Source: Candidatus Krumholzibacteriota bacterium
GTDB lineage: Bacteria > Krumholzibacteriota > Krumholzibacteriia > LZORAL124-64-63
Direction of reading: 5' to 3'
Assembly (NCBI GenBank): GCA_039714075.1
Contig: JBDLKA010000015.1
Span: 1 to 51,581 of the forward strand
DNA: 51,581 nucleotides
Below the pieces are notes generated by a model. That model was not told the origin of the DNA. It ran no database searches and worked only from the letters and a program-made list of their open reading frames with translations. The position numbers and the translations under genes were made by a program. How positions within the stretch are numbered: position 1 is the stretch's first letter; every line of letters starts with the position of its first letter. Positions 1,216 through 46,349 of the stretch are shown here, in pieces.

Positions 1216-2409
1216 ATGCATTTCATCCGCCCGGCAAGACTGACGGCCGCCCTGGTGGTTCTCATGGTTTTCGCCACCGTAGCCTCCGCCGCGGACGAGA
1301 TCCCCACAGGCAATCCCGGTCCCTCCCATTTCCTGCGCGGCGCCGTCCAGGCGGGTTCGGTCCTGCAGACCAACGACTTCCTCAAGGGGAACAACCAGTC
1401 CGGTGAACCCATCGACAGTTTCCAGTCGCTCCGCCTGGAATTCGGCTGGCAGACCGACGGCTCCATGGACTGGCACCACTCCTACAACTTCCCCTCCTAC
1501 GGGATCGGGCTCTACGGGGCAAATCTCGACAACGACGAGGAACTCGGCACACCCACCTCGCTCTACGGTTTCTTCGTCTGGCCCCTGGTCCGCGGCGAAC
1601 GCTGGCGATTCAATTTCGACCTCGCCTTCGGGCTGACCAACGACTGGAAACCCTACGACCCGGTGACCAACCCGAAACAGATCGCCATGGGTCTGGGCCG
1701 CTCGGTCCATATCGAGGGCGGACCGAACGTCGAGTACCGCCTGGCCGACCGCTGGGCGCTGATCGGCGGGGTGACCTTCACCCACTTCTCCAACGGCGGG
1801 ACCCAGCGGCCGAACCACGGGATCAACCAGGTCGGGCCGCTTTTGTTCGTCAAATACGACACGGACATGCCGGTCACTCCTCCGGTCCGGCGGCAGATCG
1901 ATGACTTTCCGCGCGGCTGGGACCTGACGGTGACCGGCTCGACGGGCAAGCGGAACCTGGATCTGGAACTCCAACGCCCCGACCAGGAGCGGTTCCTGAA
2001 CAGGAGTTACTTCATCGGCAACCTGACCGTGGGCATGGGGCGCAGGTTTTCCTGCAAATCGCGCTACGTCTTCGGCCTGGATCTGGGATACGACGAATCG
2101 GTGGGGGATCTCATCATTCTCGACGGCATGGAAAACGGGATCAACGCCAGCGGCAGCACCGGCGACAACTTCGAGCTGGCTCTGTTCGGCGGATACGAAA
2201 TCGTCGCCCACCGGACCCACCTGGTCATCCATCTGGGCTACAAGGTCCTGCGCAAGGACCTGCCCAATCGCCTGCCCGACTTCTACCAGCGGCTGGGCGT
2301 GAAGCAGTTCTTCTACCAGGATTGGTTCGCGGGGCTGAACGTGCGGTTCCACGAGATAGGCAGCGCGGACAATCTGGAATGGAACATCGGGTACAAGATG
2401 GAGATGTAG
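1216..2409 (+). CDS. Acyloxyacyl hydrolase / PagL-like outer-membrane beta-barrel protein
   Basis: ATG at 1216 after GGAAGG; signal peptide ending ...VASA; alternating beta-strand pattern; PagL-like 'THFSNG' His-Ser motif and 'PNHGINQ'. Confidence 0.7.
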   Translation: MHFIRPARLTAALVVLMVFATVASAADEIPTGNPGPSHFLRGAVQAGSVLQTNDFLKGNNQSGEPIDSFQSLRLEFGWQTDGSMDWHHSYNFPSYGIGLYGANLDNDEELGTPTSLYGFFVWPLVRGERWRFNFDLAFGLTNDWKPYDPVTNPKQIAMGLGRSVHIEGGPNVEYRLADRWALIGGVTFTHFSNGGTQRPNHGINQVGPLLFVKYDTDMPVTPPVRRQIDDFPRGWDLTVTGSTGKRNLDLELQRPDQERFLNRSYFIGNLTVGMGRRFSCKSRYVFGLDLGYDESVGDLIILDGMENGINASGSTGDNFELALFGGYEIVAHRTHLVIHLGYKVLRKDLPNRLPDFYQRLGVKQFFYQDWFAGLNVRFHEIGSADNLEWNIGYKMEM

Positions 2410-34733: not shown

Positions 34734-36293
34734 TCACCCCTCCTGGGAACCCGGCTGCGCTTCACAGCAACCGGCGCCGATGCTCCCCTTGAGGATCTCG
34801 GTCTTGAGAAGGAAACTCCCCTGGGTGACGACCGTTTCGCCGCCCTTCAATCCTCGCCTCACTTCGACCATCGTCCCGGTCGCCGGGCCGAGGTGGACCT
34901 TCACCGGACGGAACACGGTCGGCGAATCCTGCACGAAGACCACGTTGCAACAGCCCTCCCACTGGACTGCGGCGCGGGGCGCCACCACGGTGGGTTGGGC
35001 GTCACGCACGGTCACAACGGCCCGGGCGAACATGTTGGCCCGCAGGGAACCGTCGGGGTTGTCAAGCTCGGCCCGTGCCTCCAGGGTCCGCGTACGCGGG
35101 TCGAGATGGGCGCCGACCCACGTGATTCTGCCGGCGACCGCCTCGCCGGGCAGCCCTTCCACATGCAGAATCACGGGCTGGCCCGTCCGGATATCCCGGA
35201 TGTCCGTTTCGTAGATGTCCAGCCGGGCCCACATTCTGGTCACGTCAGCCATGGCGAACAGGGGAACCGAAGGGTTGCTAAGCTCGCCCACCGTAGCCTG
35301 GCGCTCGACCACCACGCCGGAGAAGGGGGCCGTAACCCCGTACTCGTTGGTCGTGTCTCCGGTGCGCGCCACCTCGGCAATCCGGTCGGCCGACAGGCCC
35401 AGGCCCATGAGTTCCTGCTCCGCGCGGGACTTGGCTATCCGGCTCTCTGCCAGACTGGTCTCGGCTTCCAGGAGATCGCGCTCGGTGGCCACCCCCCGGG
35501 CCAGGAGGTCCTTTTCCCGGGCGTGATTCCTGGTCCAAAGAGTTTCGGACGCCAGAGCCTGGAGGTACGCGGCCTTGGCCGCGCCGAAGGCCGGCGAAAC
35601 GATCACCGCCAGAACCTCACCCGGATCGACCAGGTCGCCCAGGTCCTTCTCCACCGATTGGACCAGGCCGCCGACCTGGGGCGCCAGGCGGGCGAAGCGG
35701 GTGCCGTCGTAGTCCAGGATCGCGTTGCACTCAAGGGTCCGCGACACGGGCTGGACCTTCACCTCCGCGAATTCCAGTCCCGCTTCCTGGGCAATCGTCT
35801 CGCGCTCGAAGGTCACCGTCAGGAGTTGGGTGGTGCACGTGACGGAGGGGGCCCGGCGGTATCGTGGTTCCGAACCGTGTTGCTCCGCTTCGACCTCACC
35901 CGGAATGGAGGTCGCCTCGGCCAGAGCCGGGTTGCAGTCCACACACCGGGATTCCGGCAGGCCGTGCCCGGCGCACCAGTCGTCGACGGCCTGGTAGGCG
36001 GCGACCATGTCGGGATTGCAGATCCAGCACAGGGCCTCGGCCACGTCGTGCCCGGCGCACCAGCCCATTTCGGCTATAAGACCGGGATTGCAGAAGGGAC
36101 AGGCCGATTCGGCGATCGCGTGTTCAGCGCACCAGTCTGCGGCCGCTACCGTCTCGCCGTGCTCGCCCGGCCCGTGGTCGTGACCCGCGTTTTCATCCAC
36201 GACCGTCTTGTCGGTGGTTCCGTCCCCGCACCCGGCCGCCGTGACGACCAGGAGGGTAATGGTCAACAAAAAAGTCTTCTTCAGGGTGTTCAT
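34734..36293 (-). CDS. RND periplasmic adaptor (CzcB-like) lipoprotein with three Cys/His repeats
   Basis: Lipobox 'AAGC'; WCxxH-x6-CxxCNP three times; MFP motifs 'VTAPFSGVVVER', 'LDPRTRT', 'LRANMF'. Confidence 0.9.
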   Translation of the reverse strand: MNTLKKTFLLTITLLVVTAAGCGDGTTDKTVVDENAGHDHGPGEHGETVAAADWCAEHAIAESACPFCNPGLIAEMGWCAGHDVAEALCWICNPDMVAAYQAVDDWCAGHGLPESRCVDCNPALAEATSIPGEVEAEQHGSEPRYRRAPSVTCTTQLLTVTFERETIAQEAGLEFAEVKVQPVSRTLECNAILDYDGTRFARLAPQVGGLVQSVEKDLGDLVDPGEVLAVIVSPAFGAAKAAYLQALASETLWTRNHAREKDLLARGVATERDLLEAETSLAESRIAKSRAEQELMGLGLSADRIAEVARTGDTTNEYGVTAPFSGVVVERQATVGELSNPSVPLFAMADVTRMWARLDIYETDIRDIRTGQPVILHVEGLPGEAVAGRITWVGAHLDPRTRTLEARAELDNPDGSLRANMFARAVVTVRDAQPTVVAPRAAVQWEGCCNVVFVQDSPTVFRPVKVHLGPATGTMVEVRRGLKGGETVVTQGSFLLKTEILKGSIGAGCCEAQPGSQEG

Positions 36294-42346: not shown

Positions 42347-42525
42347 CGGTAGGTGATAGCCCCAACTCCCTCATAGCAGGCTTGCCCTGAAACAAGCGGA
42401 CGACGCGTTGCCATCACAAGTTTCGAATATTCGATGATAAGAGGATTGTATTCCTCTGGTTTTTGTGAGACAATACGCTTCTCATTGTGGGGGCTCAGGG
42501 GAGGGATTACTGCGGAGAGTCGTCC

Positions 42526-44562
42526 ATGACCCGGAGGTCCATCATGCCCCGAGCCGCCATCACCCTGCTTTTCTTCCTGCTATCGGCAAGCGTCGCCGCG
42601 GGTGGCCCCCTGACCGACAAGGGAACCCAGCCCGGTCTGACCTATCCCATGAATACCCCCGGCGACTGCGCCGGCTGTCACGGCCAATACGATGGCGTCA
42701 ACAATCTCGAGCCGTGGGACACCTGGGCGGGATCGTTGATGGCCCAGGCGGGACGGGACCCCATTTTCTGGGCTGCCTTGGACGTGGCGAACAACGACTT
42801 GCCCGGTGTCGGGGATTTTTGCCTTCGCTGTCACGCCCCCACGGGGTGGCTCGACGGCCGCTCCGAACCACCGGGCGGCTCCCCCGACGGTTGCGGTCTC
42901 GAGGGCAAACTCGACGAGACAAACAAGGATTTCGACGGCTTGACCTGCCATTTTTGCCACCGGATGATGGTCAATCCCTCACCTCCGGCCGGAGAGGATC
43001 CCGTATATTTCGAGAATGGCCAGTTCTGGATCGACGATACCGACTGCGCGGGCGCCGGTGAACCTTGCCGTCGGGGACCCTACGATTATCCCGCCGACGG
43101 CGCCTCGCCTCCCCCGCACGCCTGGGCTTTTTCTCAGTATCTCGAGGATTCCGACATCTGCGGGAATTGCCACAACGTCACCAATCCGGTCAAGACACTC
43201 ATTCAGAACGGCGTGGACACGGGCATCCCCTACCCGATCGAACGCACCTTCATGGAGTGGCAGCAGAGCGATTTCTCGAACCAGGCGTCGCCGGAGTTCA
43301 AGACTTGCCAGAATTGCCATATGCCGGATTCGGCGGCTGATCCGGCCTTCGTCTGCAGCGATATGCAGAACAACCACACCGGCGATCTGCCGATCCATCA
43401 ACTCGCAGGCGGCAACTCCTGGATCCCCGAGGTCCTGCGCCAGGAATACCCCAACCTGAACCTCGACCTGGAACTGGCCGCGACCCGGGATTGGGCCCTG
43501 GACATGTTGCAGAACCAGTCCGCGACCGTCGCGGTCATCACTCCGGCCGACGTTACCGAAGGCGGCGACCTGGTCGCCCAGGTCCAGGTGACCAACCTGA
43601 CCGGCCACAAACTGCCCACCGGTTATCCTGAAGGGCGACGGCTCTGGCTGAACGTGCAGGCCCGCGACGGCCTGAACAACCTCATCTGGGAATCGGGACT
43701 CTACGACATGTCGACCGGAATCCTGACCCAGGACCCCCAGATCAAGGTCTACGAGGCCAAACCGGGCATCTACAACAACAACGGTACGGGCGAATGCGAT
43801 TGCGAGGACGGTGCGGGCAACCCGATGTTCCACTTCGTGCTCAATGACTGTTACGAACTGGACAACAGGATTCCGCCCCTGGGATTCACCGGCATGAGCG
43901 ACCCCGAGACCCAGCCGGTGAACTATTCGTATCCGGAGACGTCGCCCGGTTCGGGCATCCTGGTAAACTACGATACCACCGGGTACAGCGTGCCCGTCCC
44001 GGTGGGTACGGTTTCACCTTTGACCATTTCGGCCACGCTCTACTACCAGACCATCAGCAAGGAATACGTCGAGTTCCTGGAAACCGAGGCGATAACCAAC
44101 GGATTCCCCAACGACTGCATCGAACGCTCCTCGGGCTTCCCGACGAAAACACGTGCCGGTCTGCTCAAGGACATGTGGCTGGCCTACGGAAAATCGGCCC
44201 CCGTGGACATGGGAACGGACGCGGCGGCGGTTTCGGTGACCTCGGTCTCCGGCGTGGGCATCGACGATGGCAACCTTTCGCTTTACCTGCACCAGAACAG
44301 TCCCAATCCCATCGAGCCCACGGGTCTCGGCACCCGTATAGCCTTCCGGCTGCCGCATGACCAACAGGTACGCATTGACGTGTTCGACCTCCGCGGCCGT
44401 CACGTACGCACCCTGTTCGACGGCCGGGAAACCGCCGGTGCGCACAGCATTTTCTGGGATGGTCGTGACGGGAACGGCAGAATTGTCAGTTCCGGTGTCT
44501 ACGCCTACACCTTGAAAACGAATTCCGAAGTGTTGAGGCGTCGGATGGTCGTAGTCAGATAA
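42526..44562 (+). CDS. Secreted multiheme c-type cytochrome (5 CxxCH) with FlgD-Ig C-terminal domain
   Basis: CAGCH, CLRCH, CHFCH, CGNCH, CQNCH; 'GHKLPTGYP'; C-terminal 'QNSPNP...WDGRDGNGRIVSSGVY'. Confidence 0.9.
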   Translation: MTRRSIMPRAAITLLFFLLSASVAAGGPLTDKGTQPGLTYPMNTPGDCAGCHGQYDGVNNLEPWDTWAGSLMAQAGRDPIFWAALDVANNDLPGVGDFCLRCHAPTGWLDGRSEPPGGSPDGCGLEGKLDETNKDFDGLTCHFCHRMMVNPSPPAGEDPVYFENGQFWIDDTDCAGAGEPCRRGPYDYPADGASPPPHAWAFSQYLEDSDICGNCHNVTNPVKTLIQNGVDTGIPYPIERTFMEWQQSDFSNQASPEFKTCQNCHMPDSAADPAFVCSDMQNNHTGDLPIHQLAGGNSWIPEVLRQEYPNLNLDLELAATRDWALDMLQNQSATVAVITPADVTEGGDLVAQVQVTNLTGHKLPTGYPEGRRLWLNVQARDGLNNLIWESGLYDMSTGILTQDPQIKVYEAKPGIYNNNGTGECDCEDGAGNPMFHFVLNDCYELDNRIPPLGFTGMSDPETQPVNYSYPETSPGSGILVNYDTTGYSVPVPVGTVSPLTISATLYYQTISKEYVEFLETEAITNGFPNDCIERSSGFPTKTRAGLLKDMWLAYGKSAPVDMGTDAAAVSVTSVSGVGIDDGNLSLYLHQNSPNPIEPTGLGTRIAFRLPHDQQVRIDVFDLRGRHVRTLFDGRETAGAHSIFWDGRDGNGRIVSSGVYAYTLKTNSEVLRRRMVVVR

Positions 44563-44569
44563 GGGGAAA

Positions 44570-44598
44570 TTGACACGAACCGGGTTCCGCTCTACTTT
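44570..44598 (+). promoter_or_regulatory. Sigma70 promoter of RND operon 2
   Basis: TTGACA - 17 bp (containing palindrome GAACC-G-GGTTC) - TACTTT; ATG follows 8 nt later. Confidence 0.7.
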
Positions 44599-44606
44599 GC
44601 CTAGTT

Positions 44607-45032
44607 ATGAGCCTGCACAGCAAAAAACCCAATAGAGCCCTGTGGCTGGGTCTTTCCCTGATCCTGCCCGTGTTGTATTTCCTGCAAGCAGCACCTCATG
44701 CTCACCAGGCTCACGACCAGCCCGAATCCCACCAGGCATCCGGGTCACATTCGCACCATACCCATACCCATTCCCATGACGATCACGATAGCGAAGGTCC
44801 GGACGCGACACATCACCATCATGCCCTGACGAATCATCTCGACTCTCACGTTTCCCAGACCCCCAACCGGGGATCGAGTCCCGATCCCGGGATCTCGATG
44901 GTGGTCGTTTCTGCAGGTTATGGGATTCTTGACCGGAAGACCCGATTCAGGTCTCCCGAGTCGCCCGACCCGCCGCCCCAGGCGCCTCCGCTTGTCACCC
45001 GTGGTCCCCGAGCACCTCCCCGCCTCGGCTGA
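44607..45032 (+). CDS. Small exported His-rich protein ending RAPPRLG (ribosome-arrest leader candidate)
   Basis: Hydrophobic N-terminus; 17 His in about 50 aa; no Cys; Pro-rich linker; RAPP at 45009-45020. Confidence 0.82.
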   Translation: MSLHSKKPNRALWLGLSLILPVLYFLQAAPHAHQAHDQPESHQASGSHSHHTHTHSHDDHDSEGPDATHHHHALTNHLDSHVSQTPNRGSSPDPGISMVVVSAGYGILDRKTRFRSPESPDPPPQAPPLVTRGPRAPPRLG

Positions 45033-45086
45033 ACAGCCTTTTAATCCGTTTACGTTTCCAACAGCAAACCTGAAAAGGATGCCTGT
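45033..45086 (+). promoter_or_regulatory. Predicted RBS-sequestering hairpin between the leader ORF and tolC
   Basis: ACAG-CCTTTT (45033-45042) is complementary to AAAAGG (45073-45078, the SD) and CTGT (45083-45086, next to the ATG). Confidence 0.6.
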
Positions 45087-46349
45087 ATGTTGCACCGTAC
45101 CCATCGGTCGGTCACCGTCACGCTGTCTGTCCTGGGAGCCCTCATACTGGGGGCCTCAGGGTCAAGTACCGCTTCGACAGCACCGGTGAACGACGTTTCC
45201 ATACGATTCGAGGACATTGAATCGTTTGCGCGCGCCGAGAGCCCCCGCGCTCGGATCATCGCCCAGAAACTGGCCGCTGCCACCGCTGAGCAGGACCGCG
45301 ACCTGCAGTGGTCGAATCCCTCTTTGGCGTATGATCACGAGGAAAACGAGAGCTTTCGTGAATGGCAGTTGACGCTGCACAAACGATTCGAGATGCCCTT
45401 CTCACAAGCCGGTCTGAGAGACGGCTGGGAGGGCACGATTCGCGCTGAGGAACTCCGGGGAAAACAGGAATCGGAAAATCTTCTGGCGGAGCTCAAGGGC
45501 GGTTATGTACGGCTTCGGCTCTTCGAGAACTACCTCGACCGCCTGAAACGTCTCGCCGGGTTGGTGGATCTGGCTGCCACCGTGGCAGACGAGAGATACA
45601 CCGAAGGTGAGCTGTCCGGGACCGAAAAACAACTGATCCAGCTTGCAGCCTTCTCCGTGGATGCCACCAGCCGTCGAATCCAGCAGGAGCATCGTCAGGA
45701 CGCTGCATTCTGGCGCGCCGAGATGGGCCTCTCTTCCATGGTCACCGTTGACCTGGTCACGCCTGTAACATTTCTGCCGTTCGAGTTGGACGGACCTGAT
45801 GCATACGCCGCCATGGTTTCCCATCGTCCCGGTCTCCAGGCTCAGGCAACCCTTGCCCAGGCCCTCGGCAGTCAGGCAGAGGCCGCTCGTCCCGACATCG
45901 TTCCCGGCATGGATATCCATGGGGGCTACAAGAGCTTCGCTTCGGAACTGAACGGTTTCGTGGCCGGCATCGCAGTCGACCTGCCCTTTTTCGACAGGAA
46001 TGCCGGCGCATCCAAGCGGCTCGAAGCCGAAAGGCTGATTGTCGAGCACGAAATGGCCATCTCCATGGCCCGTTCCCGGAATGAAATTGCCGCCCTGATC
46101 GACGCAATCACCGCAGCCCAGGCCCCACTCGCCGGGTTCACCGAACGCCTGGACCAGGGTCCGCCATTGGCTGAGACACTGCTCTTCTCCTACCGGGAAG
46201 GGTCCATAACTCTCGACGCCCTGCTGGGAGCGATCCAGATCGAATCATCAGCGGTCGAGGACTACTTCGCCGAGTTGACCGCCTACTACATGAATATCTT
46301 CCGGCTGGAATCCATGACGGGCGCCACCATCGTCCGTTTCGCGCCTTAG
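45087..46349 (+). CDS. TolC/CzcC-family outer-membrane efflux protein
   Basis: Signal peptide; 'WSNPSL', 'DLPFFDRNAG', 'YREGSITLDALL'. Confidence 0.88.
   Translation: MLHRTHRSVTVTLSVLGALILGASGSSTASTAPVNDVSIRFEDIESFARAESPRARIIAQKLAAATAEQDRDLQWSNPSLAYDHEENESFREWQLTLHKRFEMPFSQAGLRDGWEGTIRAEELRGKQESENLLAELKGGYVRLRLFENYLDRLKRLAGLVDLAATVADERYTEGELSGTEKQLIQLAAFSVDATSRRIQQEHRQDAAFWRAEMGLSSMVTVDLVTPVTFLPFELDGPDAYAAMVSHRPGLQAQATLAQALGSQAEAARPDIVPGMDIHGGYKSFASELNGFVAGIAVDLPFFDRNAGASKRLEAERLIVEHEMAISMARSRNEIAALIDAITAAQAPLAGFTERLDQGPPLAETLLFSYREGSITLDALLGAIQIESSAVEDYFAELTAYYMNIFRLESMTGATIVRFAP

Follow-up and report, generated by a model that had tools for sequence, protein, structure and literature searches.

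We analysed a window of 51,581 nucleotides (nt), the whole stretch of DNA taken from contig JBDLKA010000015.1 of a Candidatus Krumholzibacteriota genome, and we describe here a small open reading frame (ORF), hereafter the leader, located directly upstream of the genes of a heavy-metal efflux pump of the resistance-nodulation-division (RND) type. The leader is the first cistron of a leader-czcC-czcB-czcA-type operon and, judged by sequence comparison, is most likely a nascent-chain metal sensor of the CutF/CruR kind that controls the pump. By this comparison, it lacks none of the sequence hallmarks of a regulatory arrest peptide of the RAPP type whose nascent chain binds metal. The coordinates of the features are collected in Table 1.

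A preliminary description of this DNA had reported a 141-residue ORF with a signal or transmembrane (TM) segment, 17 His, no Cys, a 53-residue linker and a RAPP motif three codons before the stop, with the codons of Pro137 and Pro138 at 45015-45020. The sequence agrees with all of these details. The N terminus consists of a basic n-region followed by a hydrophobic stretch, and AlphaFold2, run with a 95-row alignment, placed a helix at residues 10-28 and left the leader otherwise without secondary structure. The mean predicted local distance difference test score (pLDDT) of the model was 71.6, with a predicted template modelling score (pTM) of 0.29; the mean block pLDDT values over residues 11-30 were 93 and 88. 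Seventeen of the 18 His of the whole leader fall within residues 31-81, and the number of Cys is zero. This His-rich region, predicted by AlphaFold2 to be unstructured, would be the part that binds metal. Between His81 and Arg135 lie 53 residues. The leader gene is borne out as protein-coding, with selection visible at the amino-acid level: across 21 loci, six Arg codons and all four Pro codons are in use at the motif, and since these codons vary freely, selection works on the peptide.

The family of the leader was assembled from a word-index search, which gave two close relatives, and from the genomes of these relatives, which gave five more. An eight-sequence profile was then run against 1.84 billion representatives. 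As a result, 91 cluster representatives matched the leader profile at E<=0.001, 49 of them at E<=1e-10, and the ten family members whose names were looked up are called 'hypothetical protein' throughout. A search with the 8-row alignment returned five loci in genome contigs, apparently the same as L002-L006, and two in metagenome contigs. R[AG]PP stands at most seven residues from the C terminus in 85 of 92 database relatives, RSPP was found in 4, and the motif is missing in 3. For the alignment A2 (95 rows: 89 database proteins, the window protein and five genomic relatives), from which P0051, P0066 and P0089 had been left out before aligning because they lack the motif, the only invariant columns are Arg135, Pro137 and Pro138 (95/95 rows). 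The motif variants in A2 are RGPP in 48 rows, RAPP in 43 and RSPP in 4, a conservation that far exceeds chance. Three residues follow the two prolines in 76/95 rows and one residue in 12/95.

The strongest single result of the analysis is the fixed distance between the conserved His and the motif Arg. Arg minus His81 amounts to 53-55 residues in 75 of 82 rows, with barely conserved sequence in between, and Arg minus His72 amounts to 62-64 residues in 82 of 90 rows. Pro124, 11 residues ahead of the Arg, is kept in 66/95 rows. On the N-terminal side of this spacer, P30, H33, H70 and H72 each occur in 90% or more of the A2 rows, and P30, H31, H33, H51, H53, H57, H70-72, H77, D79 and H81 are each kept in 67-92 of 95 rows. 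The conserved leader features include about eleven His residues, and A2 holds no conserved Cys column; the conserved ligands are His. The preliminary description had called for a survey of homologous loci. There, the terminal R-x-P-P and the linkage to a pump gene described below were kept, and a covarying stem was not found.

The motif itself is avoided in ordinary proteins of the same genome. In frames of at least 350 residues, some of which are not genes, RAPP was observed 22 times against 60.1 expected (0.37) and RGPP 39 times against 73.6 expected (0.53). AAPP reached 0.94 of its expected number, and PPAR, the reversed motif, reached 1.28. The depletion of RAPP and RGPP in long frames agrees with the general depletion given in the available account (PMC12992588). 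In the same long frames, KAPP was also low (0.30 of expectation) and RSPP was not depleted (0.98).

The leader is strictly linked to pump genes. A homologue of the outer membrane factor (OMF) gene of the window was located 49-109 nt downstream in 20 of 21 distinct leader ORFs (18 counted by script and 2 by their reading frames); the exception is locus L032. Wherever the flanks are long, in seven loci, the order OMF, membrane fusion protein (MFP), RND permease is kept up to the limit of each contig. Conversely, a search for the OMF in 208 genomes of the phylum gave 16 places with an identity of 41% or more, each of them behind a leader. At E<=0.001, 22 of the 208 genomes have the leader itself; the seven remaining genomes of the window's genus gave none. 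The heavy-metal RND operon named in the preliminary description was confirmed by matches to PF02321, TIGR01730 and TIGR00914: a permease over its cut-off, an adaptor and an OMF occur together, which identifies a heavy-metal-efflux RND (HME-RND) operon of the CzcCBA/CusCBA type. No regulator gene adjoins the operon within the window.

Table 1. Features of the leader and the pump operon, with window coordinates.
Feature	Position	Strand	Basis or remark
Sigma-70-like promoter	44570-44598	+	TTGACA (44570-44575), 17-nt spacer, TACTTT (44593-44598)
Leader ORF	44607-45032	+	141 codons and TGA; read from the sequence
Predicted signal peptide or signal-anchor helix	44634-44690	+	Residues 10-28; preceded by Lys6, Lys7 and Arg10
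His-rich, putative metal-binding region	44694-44849	+	Residues 30-81; column counts, composition
'Ruler' spacer	44850-45008	+	Residues 82-134; length fixed, sequence poorly conserved
RAPP motif, putative arrest site	45009-45020	+	Arg135-Ala-Pro-Pro138
Tail Arg-Leu-Gly and TGA	45021-45032	+	Three codons after RAPP
Intergenic spacer	45033-45086	+	54 nt, C-rich, G-poor, no stable structure; contains the Shine-Dalgarno sequence AAGGA (45075-45079)
OMF (CzcC/CusC/TolC-like), 420 residues	45087-46349	+	PF02321, 26.4 bits against a cut-off of 22
Periplasmic adaptor (MFP), 510 residues	46359-47891	+	PF16576 (HlyD_D23), PF13437; TIGR01730, 112 bits against a cut-off of 94.9
Heavy-metal-efflux RND permease, 1028 residues	47923-51009	+	PF00873 (ACR_tran); TIGR00914 CusA/CzcA family, 783.2 bits against 701.45

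By architecture, the leader family appears to resemble CutF and CruR, yet it is not a demonstrable member of the DUF2946 family. CutF of Rhodobacter capsulatus, encoded in cutFOG, is described as a co-translationally exported protein: periplasmic copper delays its export and prolongs stalling, and the stem-loop over the Shine-Dalgarno (SD) sequence of cutO melts (PMC9973294; bioRxiv 10.1101/2025.02.05.636593). On the published account, the likeness to CutF would lie in the place as the first gene of the operon, in metal detoxification, in action in cis and in a stalling that metal prolongs, so that the next gene is switched on. CutF belongs to DUF2946 and carries CxxxC, whereas the leader family has no conserved Cys and stays below the PF11162 threshold. 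CutF requires an SD-shielding stem-loop, whereas none was found at the leader locus, and the target of CutF is a multicopper oxidase, whereas the leader here precedes an RND pump. The survey of CutF-like proteins names the outer membrane efflux protein (OEP) genes of RND systems as the most frequent downstream neighbour, and describes clusters 14 and 17 as His-only and located before HupE/UreJ (PMC9973294). Compared by these descriptions, the published His-only clusters precede HupE/UreJ, whereas the leader family precedes a pump. The preliminary description, which knew of no such example for RND pumps and proposed a new system, was therefore overstated, because its model is the one already published for CutF, and CutF-like leaders before OEP/RND genes are reported there (PMC9973294). 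The mechanism is already in print; a known concept is widened and none is added.

CruR (BP2923) of Bordetella pertussis is reported to be an exported DUF2946 protein of 145 residues that carries CXXC and, three residues from its end, RAPP (PMC9426467). Its length-conserved 45-residue spacer is described as functionally important, and its transcript holds a bubble of C over G (Roy et al., PMC9426467). In that report, copper relieves the arrest, and Rho then terminates transcription before the importer gene (PMC9426467). In vitro work has shown the arrest of CruR, in which the P and A sites hold the third and fourth codons of RAPP (PMC12992588). The leader is close to CruR in length (141 against 145 residues) and shares the N-terminal export signal, the RAPP motif with a tail of three residues and the predicted lack of structure; the model of one helix and a coil is like the CruR report. 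Additionally, both have a length-conserved spacer between metal motif and RAPP, and an unstructured 3' part of the ORF with more C than G. The differences are a spacer of 53 residues (62 from the HHH run) against 45, an intergenic region of 54 nt against 162 nt, and His without Cys in the leader, whereas CruR has CXXC, responds to copper and acts independently of its signal peptide.

Other known systems are less close. CzcI of Cupriavidus metallidurans pMOL30 is likewise a small exported protein directly upstream of czcC, and is described as a CutF-like protein without the proline motif, located before czcCBA (Ozturk et al. 2023, PMC9973294). Unlike the leader, it contains Cys, has no PP motif and ends in a tail RAPDRP...; a kinship with the leader family was rejected, as hhalign gave a probability of 0.5% over 8 columns. 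As described in PMC7897499, PMC10951233 and PMC12992588, ApdA, ApdP and the Streptomyces set are like the leader in that a small protein, secreted or membrane-bound and with RAPP or RGPP at the C terminus, is encoded upstream of the regulated gene. The leader shows the features given by Fujiwara et al. 2025: it has fewer than 300 residues, RAPP near its end and a predicted signal or TM segment, and it is linked upstream of its putative target on the same strand. Metal-homeostasis genes are reported among the genes downstream of RAPP/RGPP leaders (Fujiwara et al. 2025, PMC12992588). The characterised leaders of this kind, as presented in these sources, monitor Sec/YidC or precede TonB, YcnI, PCuAC, PepSY and thioredoxin genes; 'efflux' and 'RND' are absent from the main text of PMC12992588. 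Of the papers retrieved by full-text search on leaders of this kind ahead of heavy-metal pumps, only PMC9973294 was relevant. TnaC of Escherichia coli is alike in that a ligand-induced arrest at the end of the leader is described to block Rho-dependent termination and to turn the operon on (PMC9973294), and differs in that free tryptophan is sensed inside the tunnel and in that it has neither an export signal nor RAPP.

The searches against named families gave little. Leader and OMF matched no NCBIfam family at E<=0.01, and the leader was also without a Pfam match. By language-model features, DUF6769 (PF20558) is the nearest named family, with 27 of 30 named Atlas hits, and 35% of the members of the listed cluster carry that name. 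For the roughly 70 further clusters, the Atlas gave leads to Bacteroidota, Verrucomicrobiota and Myxococcota. DUF6769 was rejected, since the whole genome gave no match at E<=10 and only 2 of 95 family members did, with a best E of 1.8. A tblastn search of the leader against 72,556 plasmids gave no match.

The genome and the phylum hold further leaders. In the own genome, a second leader of the cysteine kind is located on contig C8 at 35414-35773 (-), equal to L045:2415-2774 (-). It consists of a TM segment, HGATHLHEAGQTDGCHFC, 43 residues, RGPP and four more residues, with CHFC as its Cys motif, and a 379-residue porin-like protein with His-rich loops is encoded 53 nt downstream. Ten relatives of the C8 leader have invariant CxxC and ARGPP, and its match to DUF2946 is weak (16.3 bits, below the cut-off of 23.7). 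More distant leaders of the phylum with both Cys and His match the family profile with E-values of 4e-10 and 5e-11. At seven weaker OMF places (28-32% identity), a small His/Cys-rich ORF is located upstream in each case; four of these ORFs end in ERAPPL-x, one being split over two frames, and three end in GRSPT. The last three, L062-L064 (G069, G064, G070), are Cys/His-rich leaders ending in (D/Q)(R/Q)YGF-x-F-x-GRSPT-xx, and their sister group ends in ERYGLIFAERAPPLS. The GRSPT ending may be either a degenerate arrest motif or a different one. At L032 (G205:C241), the ORF at 1504-1932 (+) is a hybrid with HHHH and CPVC that ends in RAPPNLL and precedes a 425-residue porin-like gene.

We then considered how a stalled ribosome could act on the pump genes. 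The preliminary description proposed that a hairpin, formed by the first 10 nt after the leader stop and the SD region, blocks OMF initiation until a ribosome arrested at RAPP melts it. The complementary stretches are indeed present in the window: ACAGCCUUUU at 45033-45042, AAAAGG at 45073-45078 and CUGU at 45083-45086. The closest genomic relative, L002, has the inner six pairs too, and CutF is reported to work in this way (PMC9973294). However, the proposed hairpin reaches only -3.9 kcal/mol with a 30-nt loop, whereas the minimum of the 58-nt stretch is another fold at -7.2 kcal/mol. When 44990-45110 was folded, the hairpin was absent (z = -0.67), and 52 of 200 shuffles folded just as well. 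In 28% of cases, a random 16-mer from the locus equalled the real stretch in its pairing with the SD region.

The related loci gave the same result. In 20 loci, the accessibility of SD and start was 0.40 from the stop onward against 0.40 for upstream shuffles, and 0.43 against 0.40 shuffled when 90 nt of the leader 3' end were included. The pairing of SD and start with the first 25 nt after the stop was 0.21 against 0.18 shuffled, and the pairing of the SD with the footprint of the stalled ribosome was 0.04 against 0.07 shuffled. RNAalifold found 0 consensus pairs in 18 loci. For the ten-pair helix, 52.0% of cells were paired against 52.6% shuffled, with covariation below the shuffled mean, and sliding of the partner changed little. 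The median duplex-energy rank among random 16-mers was 0.485, with 1 of 20 loci at or below 0.05. Additionally, the footprint of a ribosome whose P site holds Pro137 would extend on the mRNA only to about the stop codon, short of the 5' arm. The hairpin is thus no better than chance in the window and in 19 related loci. The SD-occluding stem-loop of the secM-secA or cutF-cutO type was rejected on fold, energy, accessibility, RNAalifold, pair counts and duplex ranks, and we regard hairpin control of the OMF as highly improbable. Of the preliminary proposal, the complementary stretches and the hallmarks of an arrest-peptide metal sensor remain, the latter supported by comparison, whereas the stable hairpin and its opening by the stalled ribosome do not.

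The composition of the same RNA points elsewhere. Both the last 300 nt of the leader and the spacer are rich in C, poor in G and without structure; the difference C minus G is largest near the stop, at +21 points, and drops to about zero in the OMF gene. The window spacer without its last 16 nt holds 12 C and 4 G. Trimmed in the same way, the spacers of the 20 loci hold 336 C (35%) and 172 G (18%) in 964 nt, and C exceeds G in 20/20. Rho is encoded in the genome. No terminator-like site was found in the spacer, and Rfam families searched over 44300-45400 gave only a chance-level CRISPR-DR8 match (E=0.3) outside the spacer. In 7 of 20 loci, a short pyrimidine motif, GC[CT][CT]TT, follows the stop at a distance of 2-3 nt (window 45035-45042), where about 0.01 is expected per locus; these loci are kin. 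It could pair with AAAGG, as hairpin control would need. The motif also resembles the boxA consensus and may, instead of forming a hairpin, be part of a Rho/Nus site. In 17 of 18 close loci, 72-76 nt separate the predicted P-site codon from the AUG of the OMF (window 45015-45087). This distance is constant even though the spacer measures about 55 nt in leaders with three residues after the motif and about 63 nt in those with one; it may reflect only a moved stop codon.

Upstream of the leader, a promoter was recognised by conservation alone. Sixteen of 20 related loci carry the pattern TTG[AC][CT]N-N16-18-TAnnnT-N5-11-ATG, with the ATG in the leader frame, and both strands of these loci (146,538 nt) hold no other instance of it. 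A consensus promoter scanner found none at the window because the -10 hexamer matches only 3/6. In the loci with the conserved promoter, the leader ATG is located 5-11 nt past the -10 and an SD is missing; in the window, this gap is 8 nt. An 8-nt gap leaves an SD no room, and therefore the mRNA from which the leader is translated is probably leaderless. The transcript, with its start as predicted from the promoter, would begin at the ATG or nearly so. Short palindromes were observed in the promoter spacers of several loci, in the window as GAACCgGGTTC.

For the operation of the leader, we favour Rho shielding over the unmasking of a ribosome-binding site, since no SD hairpin is conserved, the RNA is C-rich, G-poor and unstructured, and Rho is encoded. 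The proposed course is as follows. The ribosome would arrest with its P site at Pro137 (45015-45017) and its A site at Pro138 (45018-45020), an assignment taken over from the CruR toeprint as reported (PMC12992588). At this moment, residues 31-60 would already be beyond the translocon, and the HHHHxxxxHxDxH block, 56-68 residues from the P site, would be in or at the periplasmic mouth of SecYEG. In the absence of metal, export would pull the chain and the arrest would be short. With metal on the His block, the pulling would be hindered and the arrest would last. As in CruR and TnaC, the parked ribosome would then keep Rho from terminating the transcript, and the pump genes would be expressed. 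The mechanism is weakest at this last step, where the parked ribosome would act on the pump genes. A divalent cation is a plausible ligand; Ni, Co or Zn would be a guess.

We weighed the sensor against the possibility that the leader is a working envelope protein, an anchored or periplasmic His-rich metal buffer or chaperone instead of a regulator, whose motif does not serve arrest. Conserved His are abundant, the leader always comes first in the operon, the adaptor likewise has His-rich tails, three distant leaders are without PP, and CzcI is described in the same place before czcCBA (PMC9973294). A buffer, however, needs neither an invariant R-x-P-P fixed to the stop nor a spacer that is conserved in length and variable in sequence. 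RAPP and RGPP are selected against in ordinary proteins, in this genome and, by the published account, generally (PMC12992588). No fold is predicted past the N-terminal helix, and the leader has no similarity to CzcI (hhalign probability 0.5%). We consider a role as buffer or chaperone in place of regulation unlikely, and note that the two roles can coexist.

The sign of the response and the sensed signal were also considered. The leader could have the polarity of CruR, with arrest by default and release by metal that turns the downstream genes off, or it could monitor Sec or export capacity instead of metal. CruR has the same size, the same RAPP and three-residue tail and the same bubble of C over G, and metal is reported to relieve its arrest (PMC9426467); RAPP leaders were first found, according to PMC7897499 and PMC10987492, as monitors of protein localisation. 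However, a pump that is turned off when metal rises would make no physiological sense. The conserved part besides the motif is a His array, which is unexpected for an export monitor, and the downstream genes encode a pump of the CusA/CzcA family and not Sec or YidC components. Both variants are very unlikely in our view.

Several results weigh against the metal-sensing arrest peptide that we prefer. The proposal is drawn wholly from comparative inference, and its gene-context evidence comes from this phylum only. No match of the leader to Pfam PF11162 (DUF2946; gathering score 23.7 bits) was found at E<=0.1, and 6 of 95 family members touch DUF2946 weakly, with a best E of 0.0062. In hhalign, the leader family aligned with the ten-member C8 family over the last 19 columns only, with a probability of 10.6%; these columns share Pro-x10-Arg-Gly-Pro-Pro. 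The alignment is confined to them, and therefore it does not establish homology with proven arrest sensors. Three distant leaders end in GRSPT, so PP is not indispensable in every lineage. The excess of C inside the ORF is partly forced by the codons of His (CAY) and Pro (CCN); the spacer alone is free of this codon bias, but it is short. Finally, CutF depends on the stem-loop that was not found here, and the relief of arrest by metal reported for CruR has the sign opposite to that needed for an efflux pump. A more specific version of the sensor is possible, though less likely than its general form: a family of its own outside DUF2946, with His-only nascent-chain sensors of a divalent metal (Zn, Ni, Co or Cd), a leaderless mRNA and a spacer of about 54-63 residues through which the metal would be read where the translocon opens into the periplasm, and that would turn a tripartite RND pump on through the exclusion of Rho, without the unmasking of a ribosome-binding site.

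The pump genes and the upstream neighbour showed further features. The identity of the RND permease is 35% with CzcA from pMOL30 and 30% with CusA from E. coli. In TM4 it has AIGVLVDDAVIYVEN, where CzcA has DFGIIIDGAVVIVEN and CusA has AVGAMVDAAIVMIEN, and its TM4 motif, AIGxxxDDAxxxVEN, agrees with neither. The Met triad of CusA is not kept; the positions hold S(M), A (within HAH) and H(M). The adaptor has a His-rich tail at either end, DGQDHGHDHSTTPDGHGDAHAHD close to the N terminus and a C-terminal IGHGHAH. Directly upstream of the leader, 42487-44562 (+) encodes a 691-residue protein with several CxxCH haem motifs and a C-terminal FlgD immunoglobulin-like domain (PF13860, 34.3 bits), which ends 7 nt before the -35 hexamer of the leader promoter.

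What is new here is, firstly, a His-only family outside DUF2946 with a longer spacer and an HME-RND target in Krumholzibacteriia. Additionally, the conserved promoter with the ATG at the predicted transcript start and no stem-loop, and the C-rich, G-poor spacer, which fits Rho control better than SD unmasking, are new. Metal efflux pumps are usually described under two-component systems or transcription factors of the MerR/ArsR type. A stalling leader as the only local control of a pump would carry the CutF/CruR concept beyond copper and cysteine to histidine sensing, add tripartite RND pumps to oxidases and importers as targets, and take it out of the Proteobacteria into an uncultured phylum. 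The system offers experimental handles, namely an invariant four-residue motif, a length-conserved spacer, a defined His block and an mRNA that seemingly starts at the ATG, and it provides an annotation rule for about 90 clusters of 'hypothetical proteins'. If His-only sensing with Rho shielding is true, the leader would be the first arrest peptide shown to sense a metal other than copper and the first shown to serve an efflux pump, and it would stand in for two-component or MerR/ArsR regulators in the barely studied Krumholzibacteriota.

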